Part shown: in pieces, positions 2,459 through 21,468 of the stretch
Position numbering within the stretch: position 1 is the stretch's first letter
Layout: each line of letters begins with the position of its first letter
Virus record (IMG/VR): IMGVR_UViG_3300025132_000220
Coordinates: 1-27,611 of that record
Source: a virus
Taxonomy: Duplodnaviria > Caudoviricetes
Length of the DNA: 27,611 nucleotides
Direction: 5' to 3' (one strand)
The notes under the pieces: generated by a model
Told to the model about the DNA's origin: nothing
Database searches by the model: none
Seen by the model: only the letters and a program-made list of their open reading frames with translations
Made by a program: the position numbers and the translations under genes

Positions 2459-3931
2459 TCAAAGTGGGACGGAAGTTAAGCCGATTCTTCCGGTTGTCGG
2501 ATCGCTGGAAATCTCAAGATCGGCAGACATTTCGCCAATTAAAGCATAGCTTAGTGAATCAAAGCTGTGCTTATTATCATCACTAGCCACATATCTGCCC
2601 ACACTGCTGCCTCTTTTTAGGTATCTAAACATATCAATAGTTCCGATACAGTGGGCAGATATGTGCAGTCTGTTCTGCATTAGTAAATCTTTAAGAAGCT
2701 TCACCCTTTGTCTTACTGATCCAGCAAACTTGGGTGCGCCTATAAGGTTTATTCTTCCTCCGCTTGCGGCTGCCACAACCCTGTGGTCATAGGAGTTTGC
2801 GCTTGCTCTATACCTGACCATTGAAGATGTGTCAGACCAGTGAGTCCACCTAACTTTCTGCCCGATGTGTTCTTCTAGTTTCTCAATTCTTTCCATTGCC
2901 TCTCCGGTAAAGTCTTCAAGAGAGACATCTTGGTGAAGCACGATAAGTTCATCAAGCACAGTCCATCTGGTTCCGTTGAGTGTGTCTACCTTTTCTAAGA
3001 TATGGAACGCATGGTTCCTGTCACCTAAATCCCACCCTCCAATAAGTTCAGTGCAGTTTTCTGTTGGCAGGATAACTTCCCAGTCGCTTGCTATTGGGCT
3101 GTCGGTATTACCGACAACATGGGTGTCATGCCTAAACACTTTTCCAAAGTGAGCGTTTGTTGAAGATGCAGTCCACTTCCCCAGCACATATCTGTCATAC
3201 ATTTCCGGGTCTCCCCTAAATGTGGCTATCAAGTCCTTCTTGTCATACTCGGAAAGATAAGGGTTATCATCAATCATGGACTCAATGATTGAGAATTGTT
3301 CGGCATACTCTGGGTCTGGGTGGTCTTCTTTGTTTGGCTCTTCATACCACAATTTGTATATCCAAGAGTTTGTTCCTTCTTCGGCAGGGTTGGTGTCACC
3401 TATCCATTGGTGTGCCTTGTAATCCAATCCGGGCAAACGTAGCTGGCCTTTTGATATGGAGAACACACACATATCTTTAAAGTTGGATAGCTCAGAGAAA
3501 AATATTAATGAGAACCTAGTTCCTTTAATCTTCTCCTCAATATCGTGGTCAACATCTAGAGAATGAAGCTGGATTTCTGTCTCATTGCCGTGCATATTGC
3601 TGACCCGCAAGTAGTGCATCTTAGTAACCCCATCAACTTTAGGAGGAACAGTTATCTTAAACCCGATTAAGTTGGCTTCCCACTCTGGCAATATAAGGTC
3701 TATAAGATCAGACCATACGCCAGACTTAGCGTTGCGTATGGTTTTACAAAAGATTCCAACTCGCCCTCCCTTTGTTTCCCAGCAGTGCCTTACTAATCGG
3801 TGGAGGACTCCTATTGTTTTTGAGGAGTATCTAGGCCCACTGACCAATAGGTATCTTTTGGAACAGTTGAATATCTCAAGCTGCTTAGGACTGATTGATG
3901 GATACCAACACCCACTAGCATCAAGCGGCAT
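2459..3931 (-). CDS. terL: Terminase large subunit
   Basis: Q motif (SPKQLE), Walker A-like VSGPRYSSKT, KIKG preceding Walker B-like SLIFFSE, motif III DTNP, DNPYL and RYVLGKW linker, RNase H-like GGWDLG and HSFDSLSY. Confidence 0.9.
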   Translation of the reverse strand: MPLDASGCWYPSISPKQLEIFNCSKRYLLVSGPRYSSKTIGVLHRLVRHCWETKGGRVGIFCKTIRNAKSGVWSDLIDLILPEWEANLIGFKITVPPKVDGVTKMHYLRVSNMHGNETEIQLHSLDVDHDIEEKIKGTRFSLIFFSELSNFKDMCVFSISKGQLRLPGLDYKAHQWIGDTNPAEEGTNSWIYKLWYEEPNKEDHPDPEYAEQFSIIESMIDDNPYLSEYDKKDLIATFRGDPEMYDRYVLGKWTASSTNAHFGKVFRHDTHVVGNTDSPIASDWEVILPTENCTELIGGWDLGDRNHAFHILEKVDTLNGTRWTVLDELIVLHQDVSLEDFTGEAMERIEKLEEHIGQKVRWTHWSDTSSMVRYRASANSYDHRVVAAASGGRINLIGAPKFAGSVRQRVKLLKDLLMQNRLHISAHCIGTIDMFRYLKRGSSVGRYVASDDNKHSFDSLSYALIGEMSADLEISSDPTTGRIGLTSVPL

Positions 3932-4211: not shown

Positions 4212-4458
4212 TAAGAAAAGCATCTTGGTTAACTACAAGGAAGACGAAACCGTAGATGCAGTTATCCAGTTAAATGGGCTAAAGCCCAAGACGGGGCGTG
4301 GCTACAGAAGCGTTTTGTATTTTGAGGGCAGGGTTAAAGAAGCTGGTATGGTTGGATATGTTAAGCTTTGGAGGCCGGTGAGTAAGAAGAAGAGAAAGCA
4401 AATAATGGATCAGTTCTACAAAAACATGGTGGCCCAAAAGTCGCCTAAGATTATCTGA
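4195..4458 (+). CDS. Basic hypothetical protein (87 aa)
   Basis: ORF track. Overlaps the upstream gene and has TGATG coupling to the portal. Confidence 0.6.
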   Translation: MPRRLSKKSILVNYKEDETVDAVIQLNGLKPKTGRGYRSVLYFEGRVKEAGMVGYVKLWRPVSKKKRKQIMDQFYKNMVAQKSPKII

Positions 4459-6752
4459 TGATAGATTTAAATGTACTAACAAAGCGTGGGGTGACGGCAG
4501 AGGCCGCGAAGCAAGTTTTTGCTGGGGACGATTCAGACATATCCGATAAGGGTTTATATCTTCTGGACAGGATACAGGACAGGATAGACGAAGGGCTAAA
4601 CCACTGCATACAGAACCATAAGATTTACCACGCACTAGATGTTGCGTGGGATGCCCCACTTAAACAAGTAAGCCATACCCTTGCCCATTCTCTTCAGCAC
4701 GAAGACTTGAGTGAGGAGACTGTTCTTAATGCCGCCAGAGACTGGGGTCTTACTGGCATGATTGAGACAGTTGAGGACACAAAAGGACAGAAACAGAAGC
4801 TGAACCTTCCTGTGTTCTTTAATATTTTTGTCCCATTGGTGCGCTCATACGTTACAATTAGGTGGGCTAGAATTTACAATGACCGCAGGCAGTACCCATT
4901 GTTCAAGTATGAGATGGGTAAAAACACCACCACAAATAAACTGCGTTCAGAAATTTTAACAGATCGCGTACAAGTTATTTCCAATCAGTATGGTTACAGT
5001 GAGCTACTCAAGCAGTCTATATTCCATATGCTTCACTATGGTTGGGCGGCTCAATTCCCGCAGGAAGAGTGGCATTCCGAGAAGCAACTAGCTTTAGATG
5101 AGGCTGGGGAAGAGGTGGAGAAATACACCAAAGAGGGTATCCGTTATCACCTTCCTCACCCAAGTCGCGTATTCATAGACAAAGCCCACAGGCCCACCAC
5201 TTTCAACTCTGACTCAGGATGTACGTATGGCGGTTACTGGAGGATAATGCGGTACAAGGATATCAGAAGTAATCCTAAGTTTTGGAATACAGATAAGATA
5301 ACCTATGGAAGAACAAGTGATCTGCTTGGCCGAGCTAAAACTTATCTTGAGTTGGTCTCTCCTTGCACTATGGAGTTCCCTAAAAGCAGGGCTTCATTCG
5401 GTATTACTGACAGAGAGGCCAGCATCAACACGGTTTATAAGACCGCTGATGATGATAAAGCGGTTCTAGTTACCGAGTATTATGAGAAACTTATTCCAAG
5501 TGAGCATGGCCTTGGCGATTATGACCATCCTGTGTGGTTTCGTTTTTGTTTGGCTAACGACGACACTATTTTGTATGCTTCTCCTATCCCCTATTGCCCG
5601 GTTGTTTACTATGCTTACGATCCCCATGAAGGGAAAAGCATTAACTCGTCATTAAGCCTTGAGATTGTTCCGTTCCAAGATCAAGTGGGGAATCTATTGA
5701 GCCAGTACTTGTTAAGCGTTAAGCAAAACCTAGCCAACATGACCTTTGTTGACACTGATCAAGTGCCAAAGGACATGATTGATAGGCTACAGAACTGGGG
5801 CGAAAAGCTTTTCAGAAGCTTAAACTTCATGCCCTTTTCAAGCAGGCAGAACAAGTTTGCCCAGAGTGATGTAAGGGAAGCTTTCACTTCTGTCCGGTTC
5901 ACGGCACTAGACACTAATGGGATAGTTGGGGCTATGCGCCAAGTGATAGATATGCTTGAGCGTTTGCTGGTCATATCAGCACAAGAGATTGCTCAGGTTG
6001 CCAGCCATGAGCAGACCGCCGAGGAAGTTAGGACGGTTGCAAATACTACTACCACGCGCCTCGCGTTTACTGCATCAGCAGTAGATGACGCCATGCTTGC
6101 ATGGAAAGAGCAGATATACAGAGGTCTGATGGCGTATGGAGAAGATGAAGTTTATGCAGAAATTAATTCTGGTTATACGCCAGAGCAGATTAATGATCTT
6201 GGCTTCACGCTGGAAGAGGAAGATACGGATAGGGCTGGCCTTGTTGGAGTACGAGGACAGAAGACTGCACTTGGCCTTGATGTTATTGGCAGCTATCGCG
6301 ATTCTACGGATCGTGTCTCTGATAACGCAATGGCTGCTGCGTTGACCCAGCTTTACCAAATTGTGGCAAGTGACCCAGAGATAAGACAGACTGTGGGCAT
6401 TGACCAAGTGCTAGATGTTGTAAACCAGATCGGTGAGATGCTGGGATTACCAAAAGACTTTAAGCTGCAAAAGATAGACCAAGGAGATCAACCCCAAGCT
6501 CAGGGTGATCAGATGGCGGCAGTGGCCGAAGAGATACGGAACTCAATAATCTCAGAGGTAGGAGAGGCAATAGAGCCTTTAGCTCAAGGGACGCAGCAAA
6601 ACGCAACTATGATTCAGCAGATAGTAGATGTGCTTCAGCGCGGGCCGCAGCCTCCTAGCCCTCAACAGTATGATACAAATAACCCAGTCCCCACTGGAGG
6701 CCCAGCAGATGTTGGAAATCCAGAACTGGCTCCAGCAGGGCCAGTGCGCTAA
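4458..6752 (+). CDS. Portal protein
   Basis: 764 aa, between terL and scaffold/capsid. Portal-like segments PFQDQVGNLLSQ and EQTAEEVRT, with a Gln/Pro-rich helical C-terminus as in P22-like portals. Confidence 0.8.
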   Translation: MIDLNVLTKRGVTAEAAKQVFAGDDSDISDKGLYLLDRIQDRIDEGLNHCIQNHKIYHALDVAWDAPLKQVSHTLAHSLQHEDLSEETVLNAARDWGLTGMIETVEDTKGQKQKLNLPVFFNIFVPLVRSYVTIRWARIYNDRRQYPLFKYEMGKNTTTNKLRSEILTDRVQVISNQYGYSELLKQSIFHMLHYGWAAQFPQEEWHSEKQLALDEAGEEVEKYTKEGIRYHLPHPSRVFIDKAHRPTTFNSDSGCTYGGYWRIMRYKDIRSNPKFWNTDKITYGRTSDLLGRAKTYLELVSPCTMEFPKSRASFGITDREASINTVYKTADDDKAVLVTEYYEKLIPSEHGLGDYDHPVWFRFCLANDDTILYASPIPYCPVVYYAYDPHEGKSINSSLSLEIVPFQDQVGNLLSQYLLSVKQNLANMTFVDTDQVPKDMIDRLQNWGEKLFRSLNFMPFSSRQNKFAQSDVREAFTSVRFTALDTNGIVGAMRQVIDMLERLLVISAQEIAQVASHEQTAEEVRTVANTTTTRLAFTASAVDDAMLAWKEQIYRGLMAYGEDEVYAEINSGYTPEQINDLGFTLEEEDTDRAGLVGVRGQKTALGLDVIGSYRDSTDRVSDNAMAAALTQLYQIVASDPEIRQTVGIDQVLDVVNQIGEMLGLPKDFKLQKIDQGDQPQAQGDQMAAVAEEIRNSIISEVGEAIEPLAQGTQQNATMIQQIVDVLQRGPQPPSPQQYDTNNPVPTGGPADVGNPELAPAGPVR

Positions 6753-8608: not shown

Positions 8609-10537
8609 ATGAGCGCAGGAGCAACTATACCGGGCGTATCAAGCGGCACGGTTTTTAAAGAAAACAATAATCCGAATAGTGTGGCTATTTGGAATAACTA
8701 CGACACGTGTGGAACAATGACACGTGCTGATGTGGGTCTGGCAGAATCTGCTGATCTTGATGCAATATTCACAGACTCAGGTGGAACCAACAACATGGGT
8801 AACTTTGACAGATACCGCGACATGGAGAGCCTTCTGGTGACTCAGATGGAACTCAAAACTTGCGGTGGCCGTCAGTACGGTATGTATGATTGGTTGATGT
8901 CTGGTGCTAAGTCAATGGGTTCTGGTGTTACTAAGCGCAGTGTTGCGGGAGGGGCCAGTGAAATTGAGCCATTTATCTTGGCGGCACAAAAAGACACAAT
9001 CAAAGACAATTACTGGATTGTTGATAGGTTACTAGACCACCAATACAAGTTTGAAACAAGTGCCAGCACTAGCTCACTTACTTTAGCACCGGGTGGGGCA
9101 ATAACTCACAGCCCTGCACTCCACGCTAGTGCAGCAAATGCTGGAGCTAACTTTGTTATTCGGCTTAAAAGGTCAAACACCAACCAAACTAATAGCATAG
9201 GTTATTTCAAGCCGGGAACCACAATTAACTATTTTTCTAAAATAAGTAATACTGGGGCTGCATACCGGGTTGCTTTTAAGATAGTATCTGCTGTTCCCGC
9301 TACTGTTAGTAGTGTGGATTATGTTGATGTTGGTGTTAAGTACCTAAGTGGATGGGGTGCTGGCTCAGACATTGGATCAACATTTGCTTTCGGAGACGGA
9401 ACTCATGCTTCTAAGATTGGCGCATATGACACAGGCGGTTCTGGCGTATGTGTTCTTGGTGCTAACAATGTTAACGATTTTGAGTATTGGTGCGAACAGC
9501 GTCCTGCTCTTAATACGTTAAAGCACGTTCCTTTTTGGTATCAAACATCTCGCCACTCTCTTTGTGTTTCTGAATTCTACAAAGAGTGGCTAGAGCGGAT
9601 GATGAGAACAAACGCATTCTTCAATAAGTTTGGAGATGTATCACTTGCGGAGCGTAATGCTCAATTAGGATTAATGCACCAGAAAGAGTGGACTAACTCA
9701 TTCTTCTGGGGTCAGCCTATTAGCAGCAAGCAAACACTTGCAGACTACAAGGAACTGGATGTTATCCAGTCAGTTGATAGTTCTACCTTCGCCGCAGGGT
9801 CTGATATTGAAGGAGCCGCAATTGGTTATCGCGCCAACGCAGTTGGTGTATACCGCCAATTGGCAGACACTGGCCGTGTTTTTGACAGCAGCGGAGCAAC
9901 ATTGAAGTTGGATGAACTTTTAGAGACTCACATCTTTAATATTGTTCGTTCGCGTAAGGATCAAGGCAAGCCTGCTGATTCTATTGACTTGTTCACGGAT
10001 TCAAGAACAGCGAAGAACATCTTTAACGCAATGGTTAAGTACTACGCTGTAGAAGGCGGTGGAACTGTTGACGGTAACAACGCTCTGACTAATGCTGGCG
10101 CGTTACGGATGAACTACGACATCACCAACAAGAACATCTCTGATCTGGGATTCTATGCACAGTCTTACAAGTTGCATTACCCAGCCGGGGTGACACTCAA
10201 CGTGATCACTAATGAGTTCTTTGATGACATGGTTACTGCAACTGAAGCAGGAACCGCTGAGACAGGAAACACTTCTAACGGTTCTATGGGAAGGTTTGCT
10301 ATGGTCTTGGATTTAGGTGGCGGTGTTTATCCCGGCATCTTGGGTTCAAATCGTGTTGTCCATAAAACTGGAGACTTGGAAGACTTAGCTAAAGTTGACC
10401 CTTCATACAAATGCGTAATGAAGAATCCAACTTCTGAGACGACCTTAAACTCCACAACGTGGACAGCAATTGTTGAGTGTCCTACAGACAACTTAATAAT
10501 TGAAAACTTTGCTGGAGACAAAGTAGACCAGACCTAG
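8609..10537 (+). CDS. Major capsid protein (large, with probable inserted domain)
   Basis: Follows the scaffold and is followed by a strong terminator. Capsid-like segments FWYQTSRHSL and EWTNSFFWGQ. 642 aa. Confidence 0.75.
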   Translation: MSAGATIPGVSSGTVFKENNNPNSVAIWNNYDTCGTMTRADVGLAESADLDAIFTDSGGTNNMGNFDRYRDMESLLVTQMELKTCGGRQYGMYDWLMSGAKSMGSGVTKRSVAGGASEIEPFILAAQKDTIKDNYWIVDRLLDHQYKFETSASTSSLTLAPGGAITHSPALHASAANAGANFVIRLKRSNTNQTNSIGYFKPGTTINYFSKISNTGAAYRVAFKIVSAVPATVSSVDYVDVGVKYLSGWGAGSDIGSTFAFGDGTHASKIGAYDTGGSGVCVLGANNVNDFEYWCEQRPALNTLKHVPFWYQTSRHSLCVSEFYKEWLERMMRTNAFFNKFGDVSLAERNAQLGLMHQKEWTNSFFWGQPISSKQTLADYKELDVIQSVDSSTFAAGSDIEGAAIGYRANAVGVYRQLADTGRVFDSSGATLKLDELLETHIFNIVRSRKDQGKPADSIDLFTDSRTAKNIFNAMVKYYAVEGGGTVDGNNALTNAGALRMNYDITNKNISDLGFYAQSYKLHYPAGVTLNVITNEFFDDMVTATEAGTAETGNTSNGSMGRFAMVLDLGGGVYPGILGSNRVVHKTGDLEDLAKVDPSYKCVMKNPTSETTLNSTTWTAIVECPTDNLIIENFAGDKVDQT

Positions 10538-11052: not shown

Positions 11053-12891
11053 ATGAAATTCACCGAACTGGTAACAGAGTTACGTAGTGACATCTGGCCC
11101 GAAGGGGTTCCAGAAAACCTTGTCGCGCCCATCAATAAAAACTTTGAGGCAGCAGTAACTCATCTCCAGCGGTATATTCCATGTCTTCAGTCCAGAAATA
11201 TCAACAGATACCCACAGTGTTCCACTTACTACCAAGGAGGGAAGACTGTCATTGACGCTCCTAAAGGGCGCATCAACAAGGTATACACAATACTAGATCA
11301 AGATGGGGACGAGGTTTATCCCGCCCTGTTTACCCAAGTAACACTAGACCAGCTTGAGTGTAACAGCCTCAAGCTGTTGTCTATGGTTTATCCTCCAAAG
11401 AATCTGGACAGGGAGCCTTTACCGATGGGCTTCAAGTACCCGGATGAAGATTCTGATTACAAGGTAAGCCGAAGCGGGACAACCAAAACCTTGCTAACAA
11501 AAAAACATGGCAGGGCTGTAATTGGTCAGTGGGCAATAGACCGTAACCGCATCTACATATCTCCTTGGATTAATTCTGACGAGATTGTTGTTGTTGAGTG
11601 GGACGGGGTAAAGACTAAGTACTCACCAGATGATGCAGTCATTGAAGACATAGACTTCAAGAGGGCTGTTAAGTTGTATGTCCAGCGCGAGTATGCCCGT
11701 GACTTTGATAACGACTATGAGCGTTACAAGTACATGAGTATGGACTTTGACACTGCAATGGGCGACTTGATCCATGAGTGCAAGAGGCAAACAGAAGTTA
11801 AGAAGACATTCTTCTGCCCAGAGGCTTATGACATTTTAGCCGTCAGGAGAAATCAGCGTTTCAATGAGGCGTTGAAAGCAACGATAACAACTGTCGCGGA
11901 AGCCGCCACAACAGAACTAGCTCCCTCTCAAGCAGTGGATGTTAGTTTTACGTTTGGAGTAATAGGAGATTACGGAGCATCAGTTGGAGGCTCTGGCTCT
12001 GCTTATGACGGGACTAATGCTAGTGCAGTGGCCACCTTGGTTAAGGGTTGGTCTCCAGAGTTTATTATTACAACTGGTGATAATAGTTATGGAGCAACCG
12101 GGGGTGATCAAAGCACTGTTACAGATTTAGATGCAAACGTAGGTCAGTGGTATTCAGACTTCATATTCCCATATGGCCAATCTGGATTGCATGGATACAC
12201 AAGCACATCTAATGCAACAACTGGCAATAGGTTTTTCCCGGCAATAGGAAACCATGATATTACTGACGCCTACGGGACAACAGATGCAGGGTTGGCCCAC
12301 TACAAAAACTATTTCACCCTGCCAAACAATGAGGAGTACTATGACTTCGTCAAAGGCCCGATTCACTTTTTCTGCTTATTCTCCAACAAGAGAACTGATA
12401 ACAGTGTATATAACGCCAAGCTAGGTGTTGGCATTACTGGGGGGCAGCATGAGTGGCTGGAGTCAAAGCTTGGGAGTAGCACATCTCACTGGAAGGTGGT
12501 TTACTTCCACCATTCTCCATACACATCAGAAACCGCAAGTGGTGGTCACGGCCCCGGAGATACAGATATGCGCTGGGATTTCTCCGGTATGGGGGCTGAT
12601 GTTGTTATCTCTGGTCACTCTCATAACTATGAGAGGATTAAGGATGCAAATGATTTTAGATACTTAGTGAACGGGGCTGGTGGTGCGCCTCTTCGCGGGA
12701 GCGGAGCAACCCTGCCTAGCGGGTACTCCTCAGAGAAATTTTACAGTACAGAAAACGGAGCTATTAAAGGAACTGTTGATGGAACTACTTTGAAGTTTGA
12801 GTTCATCAACAAGTCAGGAACCACAATAGACACATACACTTTAACTAAAGCTCTGTCTGATACGTCCACCACAAGAACAGTAACCAACTAA
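11053..12891 (+). CDS. Head-tail adaptor-like protein fused to a purple-acid-phosphatase-type metallophosphoesterase
   Basis: The N-terminus (MKFTELVTELRS...INKNFEAA...RIYISP...AVKLYV) has adaptor-like pattern and position. After a T/A/E linker, the C-terminal domain carries GDYG, GDNSY, GNHD, VYFH and GHSH, the five PAP metal-binding motifs. Confidence 0.85.
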   Translation: MKFTELVTELRSDIWPEGVPENLVAPINKNFEAAVTHLQRYIPCLQSRNINRYPQCSTYYQGGKTVIDAPKGRINKVYTILDQDGDEVYPALFTQVTLDQLECNSLKLLSMVYPPKNLDREPLPMGFKYPDEDSDYKVSRSGTTKTLLTKKHGRAVIGQWAIDRNRIYISPWINSDEIVVVEWDGVKTKYSPDDAVIEDIDFKRAVKLYVQREYARDFDNDYERYKYMSMDFDTAMGDLIHECKRQTEVKKTFFCPEAYDILAVRRNQRFNEALKATITTVAEAATTELAPSQAVDVSFTFGVIGDYGASVGGSGSAYDGTNASAVATLVKGWSPEFIITTGDNSYGATGGDQSTVTDLDANVGQWYSDFIFPYGQSGLHGYTSTSNATTGNRFFPAIGNHDITDAYGTTDAGLAHYKNYFTLPNNEEYYDFVKGPIHFFCLFSNKRTDNSVYNAKLGVGITGGQHEWLESKLGSSTSHWKVVYFHHSPYTSETASGGHGPGDTDMRWDFSGMGADVVISGHSHNYERIKDANDFRYLVNGAGGAPLRGSGATLPSGYSSEKFYSTENGAIKGTVDGTTLKFEFINKSGTTIDTYTLTKALSDTSTTRTVTN

Positions 12892-15287
12892 TGAAGTTTG
12901 ATAATATAAAGAATGTTCCCTGCATTGGGGAGAAAGCACCTGTGGTTATTGAAGACACCGAGGACGCACGTTGTTTATCTGACCCATTGTATGCAGCCAT
13001 CATGGGTGAAAACTTCTGCACCAATGCTCCAGTTATTGACGGGCTATACATAAGGCCAGCAAGTGGGGTAACGATTGGTTCGTCAGGCAACGCTCAGTTT
13101 TCTGCTTATTTAGATTTAAAGTACAAAGACGGAACCAAGAAAGCTATTGATGTAACTGAAAAAGCTGCATGGTCTTCGGCCAACTCAGCTATTGCACGAA
13201 GCTTAGGAAGCGGAGAGTTTAAAGGCGGCGAGGCCACAAACAATTTAACTGTAAAAGTTACAGCCACTTACACTCCCTCTGTTGTTGTTGATGGTGTAAC
13301 CAAAAACTACACAGACCAGTTAAGGTCAACCTCTTCTATCACAATTAAAGCTAGTTGCTATGGCAGTGCAATTGACATTGTTGTTGTTTTAGATAGAAGC
13401 GCATCAATGCTTAAAACAGATTCTGCTATCTCAGGAGAAGAGACCCGCACTGAAGCTGCCCGCGCAGCTTGCAGGCAGCTAATAAAAAACTCCAAGCTTT
13501 GGGACAGTGAAGACGAAAAGATAGTTACGTCTGGGAACACATCCGTTAACACCACTGTTGGCAAAGAAATAGATAGGATGGCGTTTGTTAGCTACGCTGG
13601 AGATGATGGGGAGAAAAGAGTTTCATTTGTTAGCGGTTTTGTTGACACAAAAACAGCGGCTCTAGGGTTGGTTGATGACGAAGAATTTTTAGTCTCTGAA
13701 GATTGTGATGGGGGGACTGGTAAACCGGGTGGCGGGTGCTGGACTAGCATAGGAGGAGGTCTTCAGTTAGCTTATGACATATTGAAAGGTGAGTCAGATG
13801 ACTATGATTTAGAAGGAGAAGTTGGGGCTAGGGTTAACCCGGCTGGGGCAAATGCTTGGCCAAGAAAACTTATCATTCTCCTTACTGATGGTTATGAAAA
13901 TGTATGTGATCCCGACCCCATAGCAGTAGCCACTGCTATACGCGCAGACAGGCTAGGACAGTCAGGCGCAACAAAAGCTCACGACACAATGATTGCTGTG
14001 GTTGGGTTCATGCTGGATTCAAGTAAGTCAATAAAGCGGTGTTCCAATAATTCTCCTAGCGGAGCTACTGTCACTGTAGAAAACTACTTAAAACTGATAG
14101 CAAACTGCTACGGCAACGACACAGCTAACGCAACCTCATTAACTTTCTTCCCCACAGACCATGACGGACTGAAGGGATTGTTTGGTGAAATCTTAAATAC
14201 AATATGCCAAGACAACACAAAAGGGACTGGGGGTTCTAATAATTCCTGCCATTACATTTCTACAACAGGGCAAGGCAAAGGAGACACCCCTCAATTAAGA
14301 GATCAGTTTGGGATAAAGAGCGGGTTAAAGAGATGGAATGTATGTAAGAACAGTATAGATTTAAGAGGTAAAGACCTATGGAACACAGCGCACCCTAATG
14401 CTGGTATGTATGTCAGTTTGATAGGTAACACTGGGTATCCTCTGCTAGATGAAGCACACTCAGGAAGCCGATGGGAATTAAAAAGTGCTTATAATCTTAA
14501 CTACACTTCAGAATGCCAAAGTGTAACAGTTCCATTTGACCACAACTTCGGCGGCATTGAAACAATAGATGAGTTCACCCTAATTAAAGATGCTCAATAT
14601 AGGTTGGTATTAAAGATGGGCGGGAACAGGGTTAAAAATAAAGCAGCTTTTCAGAATCATCACGGCCTAGACGGGGCCAAGCTGGGTAGTAGCTTTAGGG
14701 TCACAATTGGAGGAACCCAAAAAGGAGAGCTTGAAGGAGTAAGGGCGACTGACCCTAGCGTAGACGGAACCTTGGAAACTGTGGATGGCATTCCTGTTTT
14801 AGTGACAAGGAAAATTGATGGAGCGTTCTATGAATTTGCGGAAGAGGTAGACCCGGAAAGCGGACTGAAAGAATACATACTACCTTTGCCCATTGGTAAC
14901 GGAGGCTCTTACAAAATAAGAATAGAGCAGTTTCCTTATCGCTATGGAGAAGTTAACCGCAAGTTTGAGTATGTTATACCAGACGCAGAGAGAGTTAAAA
15001 TTTTCTCAGGTAATAACTGCAAGGATATAAAAGGAACACAAGAGAACCCTTTAAAAATTTCTGATTTTAGTGGGTTCACTGACGCTTTTGGGGAAGTTGT
15101 GGCTGGAGACAGGAACCAAAGCCACAAGTTTTATACCAGCGGGGCAGATGAGTTCTTAACTCCCCTCCCTTACGGAATAGTTCTGGCAGAGGTTAAGCTA
15201 CAAAAAGGAACCCAGTCAGGAAACACTTGGACTACAAGTGAAACTGTTTTTACAGAGGATTTTGAATCAGAAACTGGCGTTAACTAA
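12891..15287 (+). CDS. Virion-module protein with Ig-like (Big_2-like) domain, vWA domain and beta-rich C-terminus
   Basis: Ig-like segment AQFSAY..DVTEKAAWSSANSAIA..VTATY. MIDAS motif DIVVVLDRSASM, then TSIGGGL and IILLTDG. Confidence 0.8.
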   Translation: MKFDNIKNVPCIGEKAPVVIEDTEDARCLSDPLYAAIMGENFCTNAPVIDGLYIRPASGVTIGSSGNAQFSAYLDLKYKDGTKKAIDVTEKAAWSSANSAIARSLGSGEFKGGEATNNLTVKVTATYTPSVVVDGVTKNYTDQLRSTSSITIKASCYGSAIDIVVVLDRSASMLKTDSAISGEETRTEAARAACRQLIKNSKLWDSEDEKIVTSGNTSVNTTVGKEIDRMAFVSYAGDDGEKRVSFVSGFVDTKTAALGLVDDEEFLVSEDCDGGTGKPGGGCWTSIGGGLQLAYDILKGESDDYDLEGEVGARVNPAGANAWPRKLIILLTDGYENVCDPDPIAVATAIRADRLGQSGATKAHDTMIAVVGFMLDSSKSIKRCSNNSPSGATVTVENYLKLIANCYGNDTANATSLTFFPTDHDGLKGLFGEILNTICQDNTKGTGGSNNSCHYISTTGQGKGDTPQLRDQFGIKSGLKRWNVCKNSIDLRGKDLWNTAHPNAGMYVSLIGNTGYPLLDEAHSGSRWELKSAYNLNYTSECQSVTVPFDHNFGGIETIDEFTLIKDAQYRLVLKMGGNRVKNKAAFQNHHGLDGAKLGSSFRVTIGGTQKGELEGVRATDPSVDGTLETVDGIPVLVTRKIDGAFYEFAEEVDPESGLKEYILPLPIGNGGSYKIRIEQFPYRYGEVNRKFEYVIPDAERVKIFSGNNCKDIKGTQENPLKISDFSGFTDAFGEVVAGDRNQSHKFYTSGADEFLTPLPYGIVLAEVKLQKGTQSGNTWTTSETVFTEDFESETGVN

Positions 15288-16249
15288 TGGAACTAAAGAC
15301 TCAAGCGGATCATATAAAAAACCTTCCAAGGCAATCTGAAGAAGGCCCGTCTAATCTTGAGTCTTATTGCACGGTAGCAACTGGCAACCACGGCTATGAA
15401 GCGGCACTGCTTATGAATAGCATACGCCTTCATTCTGATAAAAAAATCTACCTACTGACAGATGCCTTTGGACATCAATGCTTGGAGGAAGATATCCCAG
15501 ATAACGTAGAAGTCACTGTCATCCCAGATGGGTTCCTTGAAGAAAGGCGTAGTGAGTTCCCCGAAAACTTGGGAGACATATGGCCTGACTGTGCAAGCTG
15601 GGGCAGCTTGTGGAATCCTGCGGAAGGAAGCCTAAAGATGGACATCATGTCTAAGGCCATCAAAGGCAGTGGCAACACATTGTTCCTAGATGCGGATGTG
15701 ATTATGGTGAACCCTATCACGTGCAACTTTCAGCACCCGGTATCACTAAGCCCGCACTTGATAACAGAGGAAGCCTGTCAGGCTTACGGTATTTACAACG
15801 CAGGATATGTGTACTCCAGTGACCCAAGCTTCCCAGAGTTTTGGGCTAACGCATTTAGAAGTGATTCTAAATTCTTAGAGCAGGAGTGCTTAGGGAGAAT
15901 CTACAAACAGTATGACACCTCCTTATTTAGTGAGGCTCATAACTACGGGCTTTGGAAGTCATCCTTTTCTAACATAGACAGCAACAAAGACCAGCTACTT
16001 GCCGAGCTTGGTATGTCAGCAGGAGATGACATCTACCTAAACAAAGAGAGGATGGTTAGCTTTCACGCCCATTTAAAACCGAAAGAAGCGCAACGCCACA
16101 TATCCTACAACCTAGTGAGGGCTTTTTATGAGTGCTTAATTAGATCAAGTAAGGAGTGCCACAACAAGTTAATGAATTTTATATCTGATGTTTTCCTTCC
16201 TAAAGCAACAATGCTTCGGTTAGGGGAGCCTTATCCTGTTACAGTATAA
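15287..16249 (+). CDS. GT-A fold glycosyltransferase (nucleotide-diphospho-sugar transferase-like)
   Basis: SLKMDIM, TLFLDADV (DxD), YNAGYVY, FLEQECL, NYG and SFHAH, in the order seen in GT8/GT77-like enzymes. Confidence 0.75.
   Translation: MELKTQADHIKNLPRQSEEGPSNLESYCTVATGNHGYEAALLMNSIRLHSDKKIYLLTDAFGHQCLEEDIPDNVEVTVIPDGFLEERRSEFPENLGDIWPDCASWGSLWNPAEGSLKMDIMSKAIKGSGNTLFLDADVIMVNPITCNFQHPVSLSPHLITEEACQAYGIYNAGYVYSSDPSFPEFWANAFRSDSKFLEQECLGRIYKQYDTSLFSEAHNYGLWKSSFSNIDSNKDQLLAELGMSAGDDIYLNKERMVSFHAHLKPKEAQRHISYNLVRAFYECLIRSSKECHNKLMNFISDVFLPKATMLRLGEPYPVTV
16231..16249. promoter_or_regulatory. Palindromic motif, copy 2 (TTATCCTGT-T-ACAGTATAA)
   Basis: 19-bp palindrome with one mismatch, ending 2 nt before ATG 16252. 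The core matches 13/15 to ATACTGTGACAGTAT. Confidence 0.6.
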
Positions 16250-17505: not shown

Positions 17506-19435
17506 ACCAAGTGACATAAAGGATACGCTCCCGTCTACTGACAGTAGTGCGTGTGCAAGATTGAAGAAGGTAATAGTGGACTTTCCGCGCCGAGTATATG
17601 ATTGGTTCAGTTACATATACAATGAGGACGGCACATTCTCTGAAGCCTTTAAGAATGATTTCTGTGAGATTCAATGTGATGACGTAGAGACAGGCGAAGA
17701 GCGTCCTATTGACGTAACAAACCCCGGAGGAAATTTAGAGGCTCCTTTTGTAAAAGCTGGTGCAGCAATGAGGCATAACGGCAGCATTCCGATTGTGTTT
17801 AATAAAGTTGATGGAGCCACAAAGTATGACATCTATCGTGGAACTTCAGATAGCATCACGGCTGCAACCACAAAAAGAATTAGGAAGGACTTACGTGCGG
17901 GATTAAAGAATATGAATGCGCCAAGGACGATGCTTTGTGAGCGCAGGGATGGAACCATATTGTATTTAGATGTTAACGGTGGGCCTGTTTATAACCCTAC
18001 AACAAGGCAGGATGATAAGAACTCTAACAGGGTGGACGGAACTACTCCTTATTATTACTGGGTTGTTGCCAAGAATAACAACGGAGCAAAGAGTGACTTT
18101 GCTGGGCCGGTGATAGGATTTAGCAGGAATGTTACTAACTATTCATCCATAGGAACACCTAAGCTATTGTTCTCAGGGCAAAGTGAAACCCCTACTGGAA
18201 TGTCCTCAAAGAAAAGAATGAGAGTTGTTCTTCGTGGCGGCGGGGGAGGAGGGGGTGCTGGAGGAGATTATGCGCTGGCTACCTTTAATAGATTTCATAT
18301 AACCAACATATCATACACAAGTGGTCAGCCAATAACTTTCACGCTGCACCAAGTTGGTGGCCAAGTTCATAACTTTGATGTGGGGGATCAACTTATTCTA
18401 AGCGGGCAGACTACAGCGGCTTGGAACACTCAAGTTTTAACTGTTAAAGAAATCTTAAACCAATCCAACCAATTTACGTGTGAGCCTATCAATGGACTTG
18501 CCGCCCCTGCTGCAAGCACGGCAATAGACATTCCAAACACCAGCACTAAAACATGGGGTGTAATTTACGCACTTGCTGACGCGCAGCCAACAAGGGTTCC
18601 GGGCGGCGGCGGTGGAGCAGGAGGAATACTTCAAGCTGTTTTTGACATAGACGGCAACAGTGTTACTGGCGTCAGGGTAAGGACGTTTGATTCTGCAAAC
18701 ACAGAAGTATTATTATCCAACTCATCTTCTTTTGGTTCCGGTTATCAAGGAGATGAGTTTACATATATACGTGGAGGGGTAGGCAGACAGTCTGCTTCGG
18801 CAGACCCTACAGCAGGAGAACCAAAAGCTAATGACAGTGTAGCAGGTAAAGCTGCACCTTACAGAACTCAACTTGAAGTTCAAAAAGGGGGATCGTGGTA
18901 TTTAATTGCATGGGTTGCTAACGGAGAAGGAGGAGGCCACGCTGATGCGGACACGACTCAAGGAACGTCTAGCAATGGTGGCGGTGGCTCAAAACAAGTT
19001 TACTGGAAAGCGTCTGATGGCACATTTTCAGCAAGCACAGCCAGCGGTTATTCTTTAAGTCAGTATGGAACTAAAGATCACTCAGGCGTTGCTGCTCTTA
19101 GGACAGATTCCTTTGGTGGGAAAGGAACAATATTTTACCCCGGAGCCGATGGGGTTATGGGAGTTGGTGCTATAACAGCAGGAACCGCTGGATCGCCCGG
19201 AGTTGGAGGCCATGCGTGGGATAGCCTAGAGCCTAAAGCTCCGTCCATAGCAGCAGTAAATACAAACTCATACAAAAGGGTAGCAAACGCATTTGATTTC
19301 AACGCACCCGGAAGTGGGGCTTATGGGTCATTCGGTGATGCCAGTGAGATTCATGGGCCTTTTGCTAATGGCGGTCATGCTTTCGGGGGATGTGCATATA
19401 TTACTTACGCAACATCAGACTATGATACAGCATGA
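17489..19435 (+). CDS. Putative tail fibre/spike-type structural protein B with FN3-like and glycine-rich domains
   Basis: FN3-like segment VDGATKYDIYR...YYYWVVAKNNNGAKSDF. VVLRGGGGGGGAGG and GGGGGAGG motifs are typical of phage Gly-rich tail proteins. Confidence 0.65.
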   Translation: MASPIRPSDIKDTLPSTDSSACARLKKVIVDFPRRVYDWFSYIYNEDGTFSEAFKNDFCEIQCDDVETGEERPIDVTNPGGNLEAPFVKAGAAMRHNGSIPIVFNKVDGATKYDIYRGTSDSITAATTKRIRKDLRAGLKNMNAPRTMLCERRDGTILYLDVNGGPVYNPTTRQDDKNSNRVDGTTPYYYWVVAKNNNGAKSDFAGPVIGFSRNVTNYSSIGTPKLLFSGQSETPTGMSSKKRMRVVLRGGGGGGGAGGDYALATFNRFHITNISYTSGQPITFTLHQVGGQVHNFDVGDQLILSGQTTAAWNTQVLTVKEILNQSNQFTCEPINGLAAPAASTAIDIPNTSTKTWGVIYALADAQPTRVPGGGGGAGGILQAVFDIDGNSVTGVRVRTFDSANTEVLLSNSSSFGSGYQGDEFTYIRGGVGRQSASADPTAGEPKANDSVAGKAAPYRTQLEVQKGGSWYLIAWVANGEGGGHADADTTQGTSSNGGGGSKQVYWKASDGTFSASTASGYSLSQYGTKDHSGVAALRTDSFGGKGTIFYPGADGVMGVGAITAGTAGSPGVGGHAWDSLEPKAPSIAAVNTNSYKRVANAFDFNAPGSGAYGSFGDASEIHGPFANGGHAFGGCAYITYATSDYDTA

Positions 19436-21468
19436 GAACACCACCAGATGCAAAGCTTTATGAACTGCGCCCCCTGACAGGGCCGCTAGACCCTTCTTCT
19501 TCTCCAGATGCAGTGCTTGCTGGAGGACATAGATGGGTACAGAACTTTAGAATTAATTCTGCCGGTGCATTAAGCAGAGCCAACGGGTTCAGAAGGTTAT
19601 TGTACACTGAAGGAGCAACTTACAATAACGCAGATTTACATTGGCAACTAGAGAACACATCTTCGGGCGCAGCGGTTGAAGACCTTAACTTTCTTTTTGA
19701 GGCAGAGATATCTAATGGTGTTACTAAATTACTGGCTGGCTCAAAAGGAAGACTGTACGCGCTCAATATAAAGACAAACAACTGGAAGCTTATAGGTGAG
19801 GGGCTTGCTACGGCAGGGCAATGGAAAGCTGCACAGTTAGGAGAGTTTATTGTTTTGGTTAATGAACACGCCAAGCCTGTTTACTACAAACTTGATCAAC
19901 CGAAAGAGTCACAAAGAACTAACTCAGGTCTTGTTGACAAAGTTAACTCACTGAAAGAAATAGAATCATTCAAGGGGATCGGACTTAACCGAGTTAAGCA
20001 TATTACCGAATGGCGTGGGCTAATGTTTTACGCCAATGTGAATGAAGGAAACGAATGGGTTCCTGACAGGCTTGTGTGGAGTGACTTTAAAAAGCCATTT
20101 GAAATTACACCAAACGTAGAAGATTCCCTAGCAGGATACCAAGACCTTGGCCAAGGTGAAGACATCATAGGAATGGAACCCTTGTCTAATGTCTTACTAG
20201 TCTACACGACTAAAGGCATCTGGCAGTTTGAGATTGCTGGGGGGACTGGGACTGATGTTCTCACGTTCCGTAAAAGATATTCAGATGATGATAGCGGGAA
20301 CATGATTCCTAACTATCCGAATACAATAGTAGCGGCTGGGAATGAACATTTTTATTTGGGCCGGGATGGCATATACTATTACAGTATATACCGGAGTGAG
20401 CCTGTCCGTGATAACTGGCTTCACCTAGCATCCAGCATTATCTTTGACGACATAAACCAATCTAAGTGTGAGCTTCCTATAGCAGCATTCAATGCTAAGA
20501 CAGACGAAATATGGATTAGCTGGCCAAGTAAAGGGGCAACAAAGAATGATAAGACACTAATCATTAATACTAAGTACAAGCACGTATCTTATATGGATGC
20601 GGGCTTTTCTGCTTTCACGAATTTTACCAACCAGAACTACACAAGCATTGCGGAATGGGCTATCAGTAATTGCGTATGTGCTGAAGGAGGAGCAACTCAT
20701 GGAATCCACCAATACAGAGACTCGTCTGAAGGCTCTTCAGTTTGTTCCGGGTCTGAAAACTTTAGCACCACAAGGTGTTCGCCAAACATAAACAATTTAT
20801 TTACCACATCTACTAAGACTTACTCTGACTCTGCTTTCCCAGATGACAACCTAGCTACGGAAGATTGGACTAGTTCTGCTGCGTCAGACACTCTTTATAC
20901 AAAGCTTGGCCTTAACACGTTTGCTGATCTTTGTGATGAATCCTGCCCCGAAGAAGTAAGGTTTGTGATGGTGTGGACTAAAGACAACTGCATAAAGGAA
21001 GACGGGAATCATTTCAAAAGAGAGCGTTGCACAAGCACACACCCGGCTGGGACATCTTCATGTCCCACCTATACTGATGAAGACTTTAACTCAATACTAA
21101 CAAGCCCAGCTTTAAGGCTTAATGATCCCACTAGAAATAAACTATTAAGGACATTTACCTTGGAGTTTGACCATGATCAAGTAGGAGGCCAGATTAGTTT
21201 GAGGATAGGAAACTCAGCACAGGCTGCTGACCCAAACAAGGTGGGATGCGGACTGGTGTGGAGTAAAGCTGGAACCAAGGAAGTCAAATGCGTCACTGAC
21301 TTCAACCGAAACGCTCACACAGCAAATAACACGCGAGCTTCAGAGGAGCTTACTTGGCCTGTCTATGAACAAGGAAGAAACCTTTATTATGAGTTGTCTG
21401 TAAGCGGAACAGCGGGAGCGTTTGAGGCGACAGCTATAAGACTTTATGCCTCAACTAAAAAAGCGTAG
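19432..21468 (+). CDS. Probable tail nozzle/stabilisation protein (P22 gp10 / T7 gp12-like position)
   Basis: 678 aa with beta-propeller-like repeats (NFRINSAGALSRANG, RLVWSD, FYLGRDGIYYY, EIWISWP). Lies upstream of the ejection-type genes. Confidence 0.7.
   Translation: MRTPPDAKLYELRPLTGPLDPSSSPDAVLAGGHRWVQNFRINSAGALSRANGFRRLLYTEGATYNNADLHWQLENTSSGAAVEDLNFLFEAEISNGVTKLLAGSKGRLYALNIKTNNWKLIGEGLATAGQWKAAQLGEFIVLVNEHAKPVYYKLDQPKESQRTNSGLVDKVNSLKEIESFKGIGLNRVKHITEWRGLMFYANVNEGNEWVPDRLVWSDFKKPFEITPNVEDSLAGYQDLGQGEDIIGMEPLSNVLLVYTTKGIWQFEIAGGTGTDVLTFRKRYSDDDSGNMIPNYPNTIVAAGNEHFYLGRDGIYYYSIYRSEPVRDNWLHLASSIIFDDINQSKCELPIAAFNAKTDEIWISWPSKGATKNDKTLIINTKYKHVSYMDAGFSAFTNFTNQNYTSIAEWAISNCVCAEGGATHGIHQYRDSSEGSSVCSGSENFSTTRCSPNINNLFTTSTKTYSDSAFPDDNLATEDWTSSAASDTLYTKLGLNTFADLCDESCPEEVRFVMVWTKDNCIKEDGNHFKRERCTSTHPAGTSSCPTYTDEDFNSILTSPALRLNDPTRNKLLRTFTLEFDHDQVGGQISLRIGNSAQAADPNKVGCGLVWSKAGTKEVKCVTDFNRNAHTANNTRASEELTWPVYEQGRNLYYELSVSGTAGAFEATAIRLYASTKKA

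Follow-up and report, generated by a model that had tools for sequence, protein, structure and literature searches.

The window analysed here is the whole 27,611-nucleotide stretch of the virus record IMGVR_UViG_3300025132_000220, a 27.6-kb record from an uncultured marine short-tailed phage. One of its genes encodes a fusion of two domains, a predicted head-to-tail adaptor and, behind it, a metallophosphoesterase of the purple acid phosphatase (PAP) type. The gene is divided as follows.

11053..12891, + strand: fusion gene of 612 amino acids (aa; open reading frame call), comprising an adaptor-like domain, a helix and linker, and a PAP-type metallophosphoesterase
11053..11817, + strand: head-to-tail adaptor-like domain, residues 1-255, with two helices, a beta domain, two helices and a C-terminal arm
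11818..11943, + strand: predicted low-confidence helix (residues 256-284), then a Thr/Ala/Glu linker (285-297)
11944..12852, + strand: PAP-type domain, residues 298-600, with its seven metal ligands intact

A sequence-only reading of the window had given the N-terminal domain about 280 aa, ahead of a Thr/Ala/Glu linker, and had started the phosphatase at about 11941. The linker stands and the phosphatase start moves only slightly, to near 11944, but the N-terminal domain is shorter than proposed, ending near residue 255, where stand-alone homologues end. No hydrophobic signal stretch is visible by eye at the N-terminus, in agreement with the signal peptide absence noted in that reading.

The reading had also pointed to a possible assembly chimera. 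The junction is spanned by contigs (not raw reads) from three of four runs (X2, 11522-12713; X4, 11410-11998; X9, 11296-12617), and the contigs of run X13 leave a 32-base gap at 11871-11902. Bridging by contigs of these runs, together with homologous fusions, rules out a chimera or misassembly, and the fusion is real. A programmed frameshift or internal start was dropped as an explanation because no conserved slippery site or internal start was found in the linkers of 14 homologues. Both halves are under selection, with dN/dS values against the related locus L008 of 0.036 for the adaptor domain and 0.034 for the phosphatase domain.

Residues 300-526 score above the cut-off of Pfam Metallophos (E 2.8e-11), and the 12 sequence matches in the PDB are all PAPs. 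PAPs are defined by the motifs DxG, GDxxY, GNH[D/E], VxxH and GHxH (PMC2553084; this and most papers below are cited for the parts of their text that were available). All five motifs claimed by the sequence-only reading were located, as GDYG (11965-11976), GDNSY (12076-12090), GNHD (12247-12258), VYFH (12499-12510) and GHSH (12613-12624). The ligands D306, D343, Y346, N400, H486, H524 and H526 are intact, as is H401, and Y346 aligns with the GDNFY of mammalian PAP, confirming the Tyr ligand in motif 2. The predicted model has the PAP core fold: four of the top five VIA matches and the top Foldseek matches are PAPs, and third in the fold search is GAP50 (3tgh), a Plasmodium PAP-fold protein titled as an anchor. 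We infer an Fe(III)-M(II) site and enzymatic activity.

The description "intact enzyme" holds for the ligands of the window but is no rule of the clade. Among 24 full-length homologues found by the N-terminal domain alone, 18 keep all ligands and six do not (one lacks only the Tyr, two have one His changed and three have several changes). A set of 29 non-redundant fused loci has 19 intact sites, seven without the Tyr only and three dead sites, and over-represents intact sites, since some of its members were collected by motif. As most lineages, including that of the window, keep the ligands and some have changed them, catalysis appears to be kept in most lineages while the fold can outlive it. 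In locus L010 (10001-11821) and the homologues P0003 and P0007 the same five replacements occur (D to N, Y to M, N to D, H to R, H to Q), a pattern suggestive of re-tuning of the site rather than random decay.

The N-terminal domain is modelled with helices at residues 3-14 and 21-41, strands within 49-184, helices at 200-219 and 222-246, and coil to 255. This matches the anatomy of an adaptor, with a helix bundle, a beta dock domain and a C-terminal arm that embraces the portal. Three structure searches, made with the two-domain model, returned short-tail connector chains with whole-domain likeness, and a protein language-model search (ESM Atlas) gave a similarity of 0.97 to SU10-adaptor clusters, which we take as a lead only. 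The gene lies between capsid and nozzle among the virion genes of a portal-nozzle podophage, and stand-alone homologues of 255-272 aa occupy the same gene position in related loci. We predict that the domain is a head-to-tail adaptor, an identity that the sequence-only reading had guessed from position and that now also draws on predicted fold, with its matches to structural connector chains, on the language-model match and on stand-alone homologues.

That the domain is some other protein, so that the argument from location fails, is very improbable in our view: all three structure searches and the language-model search indicate short-tail connector proteins, size, gene position and domain order fit an adaptor, and the window holds no other adaptor candidate. 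Hidden Markov model (HMM) searches of Pfam, PHROGs, NCBIfam and PDB sequences with the domain returned nothing usable, and arfaptin matches were dismissed (E 0.13-0.19). It is not filed as a PF24175 member, as that model gave no hit above the curated cut-off. A three-copy complex prediction of residues 1-262 scored 0.31 against a mark of 0.42 and was used neither for nor against the assignment.

A search with residues 1-280 picked out, from 1213 candidates, 24 proteins that are 474-622 aa long. PF00149 matches 21 of these, and in the remaining three the domain persists with altered ligands. Scanning viral contigs with the N-terminal domain alignment gave 57 loci, many of them near-copies, from 90 pattern matches. 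Homologues exist both with and without the phosphatase, a comparison that the sequence-only reading had proposed: 26 loci are phosphatase fusions, 24 are stand-alone domains of 255-272 aa, four carry other C-terminal cargo and three are cut by contig ends. The extent of this family is a lower bound. On a tree of 46 non-redundant N-terminal domains, fused, dead-fused and stand-alone states need five changes, against a shuffled mean of 16.2. The stand-alone form in L027 reads as a loss because it groups with the dead-site loci L023 and L026 (the tree is unrooted). Distances between adaptor domains correlate with those between phosphatase domains, both over 29 fusions (Spearman 0.61, 0/2000 permutations) and over the 22 fusions outside the near clade (Spearman 0.50, 0/2000 permutations). 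The fusion clade, with a GC content of 33-65%, is wide and old. Adaptor C-termini also take other cargo: L042 (10001-12190) carries DUF5977 repeats, plus a large insert in the beta domain, and L029, L055 and L060, L022, L082 and L083, L118, and L099 carry either short motifs resembling those of fibres or additional domains that follow the phosphatase.

The sequence-only reading, partly supported so far, missed the mobility of the phosphatase domain among tail proteins. Scanning with an alignment of this domain returned at least 73 loci from 599 pattern matches, of which 52 were examined, the other 21 being contigs already covered. Among the matches listed, these 52 comprise 18 adaptor fusions plus one fragment of the adaptor-fusion clade, five split nozzles, six phosphatase-Ig-vWA proteins, three copies at the end of a 926-aa nozzle-like protein, two in proteins of 1762-1923 aa, five free-standing phage genes (four in the tail region: L084, L104, L108 and L117) and 12 cellular-looking copies. 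The domain is attached in at least four ways, at the adaptor C-terminus, inside a split nozzle, at the nozzle C-terminus, and with Ig and vWA domains. Copies borne on nozzles or with Ig-vWA in L056, L085, L093, L086 and L105 keep all seven ligands and H401. Non-adaptor copies fall among the adaptor-fused ones in two unrooted trees, and an approximately unbiased (AU) test did not reject a single origin of the adaptor-fused phosphatases (p 0.243); we therefore claim no order of events or direction of transfer.

In the split nozzles, positions 1-60 of the clade-nozzle profile lie before the phosphatase, 64-77 match weakly after it and 80-660 are in the next gene. A split nozzle has a precedent in phage A1002. 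In Pa223, the part of the tail hub that contacts the adaptor ring includes the hub's N-terminal 46 residues (10.1101/2025.06.11.659172), so a phosphatase inserted here would also sit near the neck. The split-nozzle loci are L056-L058 (14344-17499), L085, L093, L094, L097 and L107; their first gene ends in a Ser/Thr/Val/Pro tail, and in L056-L058 the two nozzle genes are in frame across one TGA. In L086-L090 (7620-9869) and L105 (7635-9893), phosphatase, Ig (Big_2) and vWA form one protein, which in the window corresponds to two adjacent genes; the phage is a podophage and also has a separate PF24175 adaptor. The N-terminus of this protein in L086 and L105 resembles a nozzle piece by eye only, and clade nozzle profiles gave no match there. 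The same phosphatase lineage lies mid-protein in the 1923-aa protein of L100 (5592-11363) and the 1762-aa protein of L106 (6162-11450). L100 lies two genes from a baseplate-wedge gene and hence probably belongs to a contractile-tailed phage.

These attachments bear on an alternative in which the displayed domain is mainly a binder or structural decoration, its metal-site pocket holding phosphate-bearing surfaces or its fold offering the Ig/vWA protein and the fibres a place to dock, with catalysis optional. Full-length domains with dead or changed sites persist in separate lineages, the five replacements common to L010, P0003 and P0007 resemble re-tuning, six of the 52 loci above fuse the domain to Ig and vWA, a vWA gene follows most fusions in near clades, and the anchor-titled GAP50 ranks third in the fold search. 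Set against this, the window and 18 of the 24 homologues found by the N-terminal domain keep the seven ligands and H401, and the nozzle-borne and Ig-vWA copies named above are intact as well. We regard the alternative as serious but unlikely.

The surrounding genes place the fusion in a short-tailed phage's virion module.

2459..3931, - strand: terminase large subunit (family match)
4458..6752, + strand: probable portal (position, size and conservation; no family match)
8609..10537, + strand: probable major capsid protein (position, size and conservation; no family match)
12891..15287, + strand: vWA-domain protein (VWA_2 E 3e-5, below cut-off); homologues also have an Ig-like domain (Big_2 and VWA in L021 and L086)
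19432..21468, + strand: probable tail nozzle (PHROG 3287, E 5.8e-29; PHROG 8094 "tail appendage")

The terminase, probable portal, scaffold and capsid genes and a 146-aa open reading frame (ORF) lie upstream of the fusion gene, and the vWA gene, a glycosyltransferase-like gene, two fibre-like genes (labelled from position, size and conservation, with no family match) and the nozzle-like gene lie downstream. The stop of the fusion gene overlaps the start of the vWA gene (TAATG). Gene order is kept in related loci, and in some relatives the phosphatase is carried inside or behind the nozzle protein instead. The terminase is encoded on one strand, and the portal and every other virion gene on the other, both in the window and in the mapped related loci. 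No Shine-Dalgarno motif was found upstream of the ten virion genes inspected, and many starts overlap the previous stop. The glycosyltransferase-like gene of the window (15287-16249) has a DxD motif by eye and no family match; similar tail-module genes in L006 (14047-15087) and L056 (10759-11787) both have GT4 matches. One of the tail-module genes in this set, which also includes L108 (8798-9838), is GH130-like. These genes may glycosylate the virion.

A close relative, G001 (L138 and L139), encodes an integrase, two DUF2589 genes, a 74-aa pilin-like ORF (by eye) and, after ejection-like genes, a 3475-aa protein without Pfam matches (L138, 4900-5781 and 5784-16208; L139, 2323-2544 and 1182-2196). 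The terminase had no relative among cellular genomes. The N-terminal domain matched one 1.7-kb contig in a Planctomycetaceae bin, and the G001 DnaB had two confirmed matches, both Verrucomicrobiota, at 39-40%. These are weak hints of a host in the PVC group.

Solved adaptors are dodecamers between portal and nozzle, so about twelve phosphatase domains per particle would be expected if the fusion stays uncut, forming a collar outside the neck. A podophage adaptor is added outside the filled head, and a folded 300-aa domain would for this reason stay outside. The C-terminal loop of the SU10 adaptor ends at the portal stem and wing loop, and the 42-residue helix and linker would have to lead the phosphatase back out under the capsid floor. 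A domain of the phosphatase type is about 45 Å across, and by arithmetic rather than modelling twelve of them need a ring radius of at least about 86 Å. We infer virion display in an outward ring, and display in some form is likely, judging by the weights we give to this reading and its rivals. We tentatively favour, at slightly short of an even chance, a displayed and active phosphoesterase that would grip and cut phosphate esters of the host surface as the particle settles. The collar would be an accessory adsorption aid beside the fibres, not an essential one, because half of the related loci lack the fusion. Its substrate would be phosphorylated lipopolysaccharide, capsule or surface glycan, the least supported step. 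A broader proposal, held a shade more loosely, concerns a mobile PAP module carried by uncultured short-tailed phages of a wide and old group. Joined to the neck region by at least four routes, it would build a catalytic collar with iron in its metal site, stripping or gripping phosphates of the host envelope, and dead-site versions would serve as phosphate-reading adhesins. Such a collar would be a new class of virion enzyme at a place regarded as purely structural.

Several results weigh against a catalytic collar on an adaptor. Adaptor superpositions had high root-mean-square deviations (7-8 Å in one search, 10.7 Å in another), and confidence in the two-domain model, which drew on 22 sequences, is low for residues 113-151 and 248-294. 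The PF24175 SU10_adaptor HMM matched neither the window protein nor five homologues, although the same model matched L086, and the N-terminal domain profile showed no significant similarity to the SU10-type adaptors that L086 and L105 encode. Among cultured phages neither domain found a match at length; the N-terminal domain had none and the phosphatase had three weak partial ones. The fusion is missing from 28 of the 57 loci. Altered sites are kept in several lineages (L010/P0003/P0007, L023/L024, L026 and P0020), and seven of the 29 non-redundant fusions lack the Tyr only. Given where the SU10 adaptor C-terminus ends, the phosphatase would start at the capsid floor, crowded and far from the tail tip.

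The linker is low in complexity and fast-evolving, as would suit a fusion that sets only the dose or timing of the enzyme, which would be cut off at or after assembly, or work inside the cell on nucleotide signals, RNA or DNA ends or phosphoproteins, leaving mature particles with a bare adaptor. The free-standing copies in the tail regions of four loci point the same way, and there are parallels in the esterase gp84 of phage phi24B, which has a capsid-binding domain and is processed after release (10.64898/2026.04.10.717836), and in the mycobacteriophage metallophosphoesterase gp48, which has an intracellular counter-defence role (PMC12287305). We consider this outcome distinctly unlikely. No conserved cleavage-like motif was seen by eye in 13 linkers, repeated fusion to different tail proteins, even inside the N-terminal piece of a nozzle, is hard to explain without display, and the nearest cellular kin look secreted. 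Three cellular matches (Chlorobiaceae, Hymenobacter and Ignavibacteriaceae; 38-47% identity over the domain) have sorting-type C-terminal domains by eye, and both complete N-termini resemble signal peptides. Since they look exported, the phosphatase family seems to act outside cells.

This likeness to secreted phosphatases also fits a nutrient device, in which docked or released particles would liberate inorganic phosphate next to the cell, from dissolved organic phosphorus, and thereby enlarge bursts where seawater is poor in phosphate. In its favour too, the DNA stretch is present in marine, estuary and vent runs of 13 studies; RNA runs contain at most 7% of its words. Twelve enzyme copies per particle would give little flux, and the phosphatase domain lacks an export signal, dead-site versions persist and the fusion spans a wide, old clade of varied GC content, all of which make this role improbable.

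If the neck phosphatase collar is real, phage adsorption would gain an enzyme class and a site that are both new to it, and attention would turn to phosphate esters as an obstacle or a grip point on hosts that have yet to be cultured together with their phages. With one domain re-attached to different tail proteins in live and dead versions, the question of catalysis versus binding becomes testable. A viral gene labelled "acid phosphatase" (as P0016 is by one source) may be structural and not a metabolic gene of phosphorus cycling. To our knowledge, the adaptor is regarded as a passive connecting part, and the enzymes known from virions are on fibres, spikes, baseplates or capsids. We found no adaptor-phosphatase fusion or enzyme-bearing adaptor in the main texts of the open-access literature (supplements and subscription papers lay outside this search).

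The window adaptor shares its helix bundle, beta dock domain, C-terminal arm and place between capsid and nozzle with known podophage adaptors (SU10 gp11/PF24175; T7 gp11 and the KP32 type; Carin-1, A4, GP4 and A1002 gp47), and its stand-alone homologues have 255-272 aa. It differs in having a 300-aa enzyme domain behind the arm, which podophage adaptors lack in the available descriptions, and in its identity of only about 10% in structural alignments with solved adaptors, with no PF24175 match. The phosphatase domain is 17-21% identical to PAPs (pig/human ACP5, 7ov8 and 1war; kidney bean, 6ofd; lupin PPD1, 3zk4), but has no signal peptide and is fused to a predicted virion protein. Secreted bacterial PAP-like phosphoesterases (Hymenobacter, Ignavibacteriaceae, Chlorobiaceae and Chloroflexota clusters) reach an ESM Atlas score of 0.97 and lie near the phage copies in a quick tree; unlike the window domain, they look exported by a signal peptide and have a sorting-type C-terminal domain (both by eye).

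Phage calcineurin-like enzymes were treated as intracellular in a survey of jumbo phages (PMC7824862). As in the window, a calcineurin-like domain lies in or next to a phage tail gene in PHROG 1696 ("major tail protein"), to which several relatives match by their C-terminal half at positions 778-935, and in ORF22 of Thermobifida phage P1312, a metallophosphatase with a carbohydrate-binding module encoded after the tail genes and read as secreted by its authors (PMC4569894). P1312 is a siphophage, its domain is not on an adaptor, and ORF22 has no mass spectrometry coverage value in the available part of that paper's table. Tail-borne phosphoester cleavage is represented by GDPD fusions to baseplate proteins (PMC10194240). 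The GDPD-BppU fusion of enterococcal phage 9183 and its relatives likewise puts a phosphoester-cleaving enzyme on a tail structural protein and is proposed to cut a surface polymer, but the enzyme family is unrelated, the site is a siphophage baseplate and the target is Gram-positive teichoic acid. Phage phi24B gp84, a NanS-type esterase with a capsid-decorating domain, is also a hydrolase carried on the virion by a structural anchor; it differs in being an esterase, in sitting on the capsid and not the neck, and in its processing after release. The window fusion would belong with these virion-borne hydrolases and would be unusual among them in enzyme class, position and mobility.
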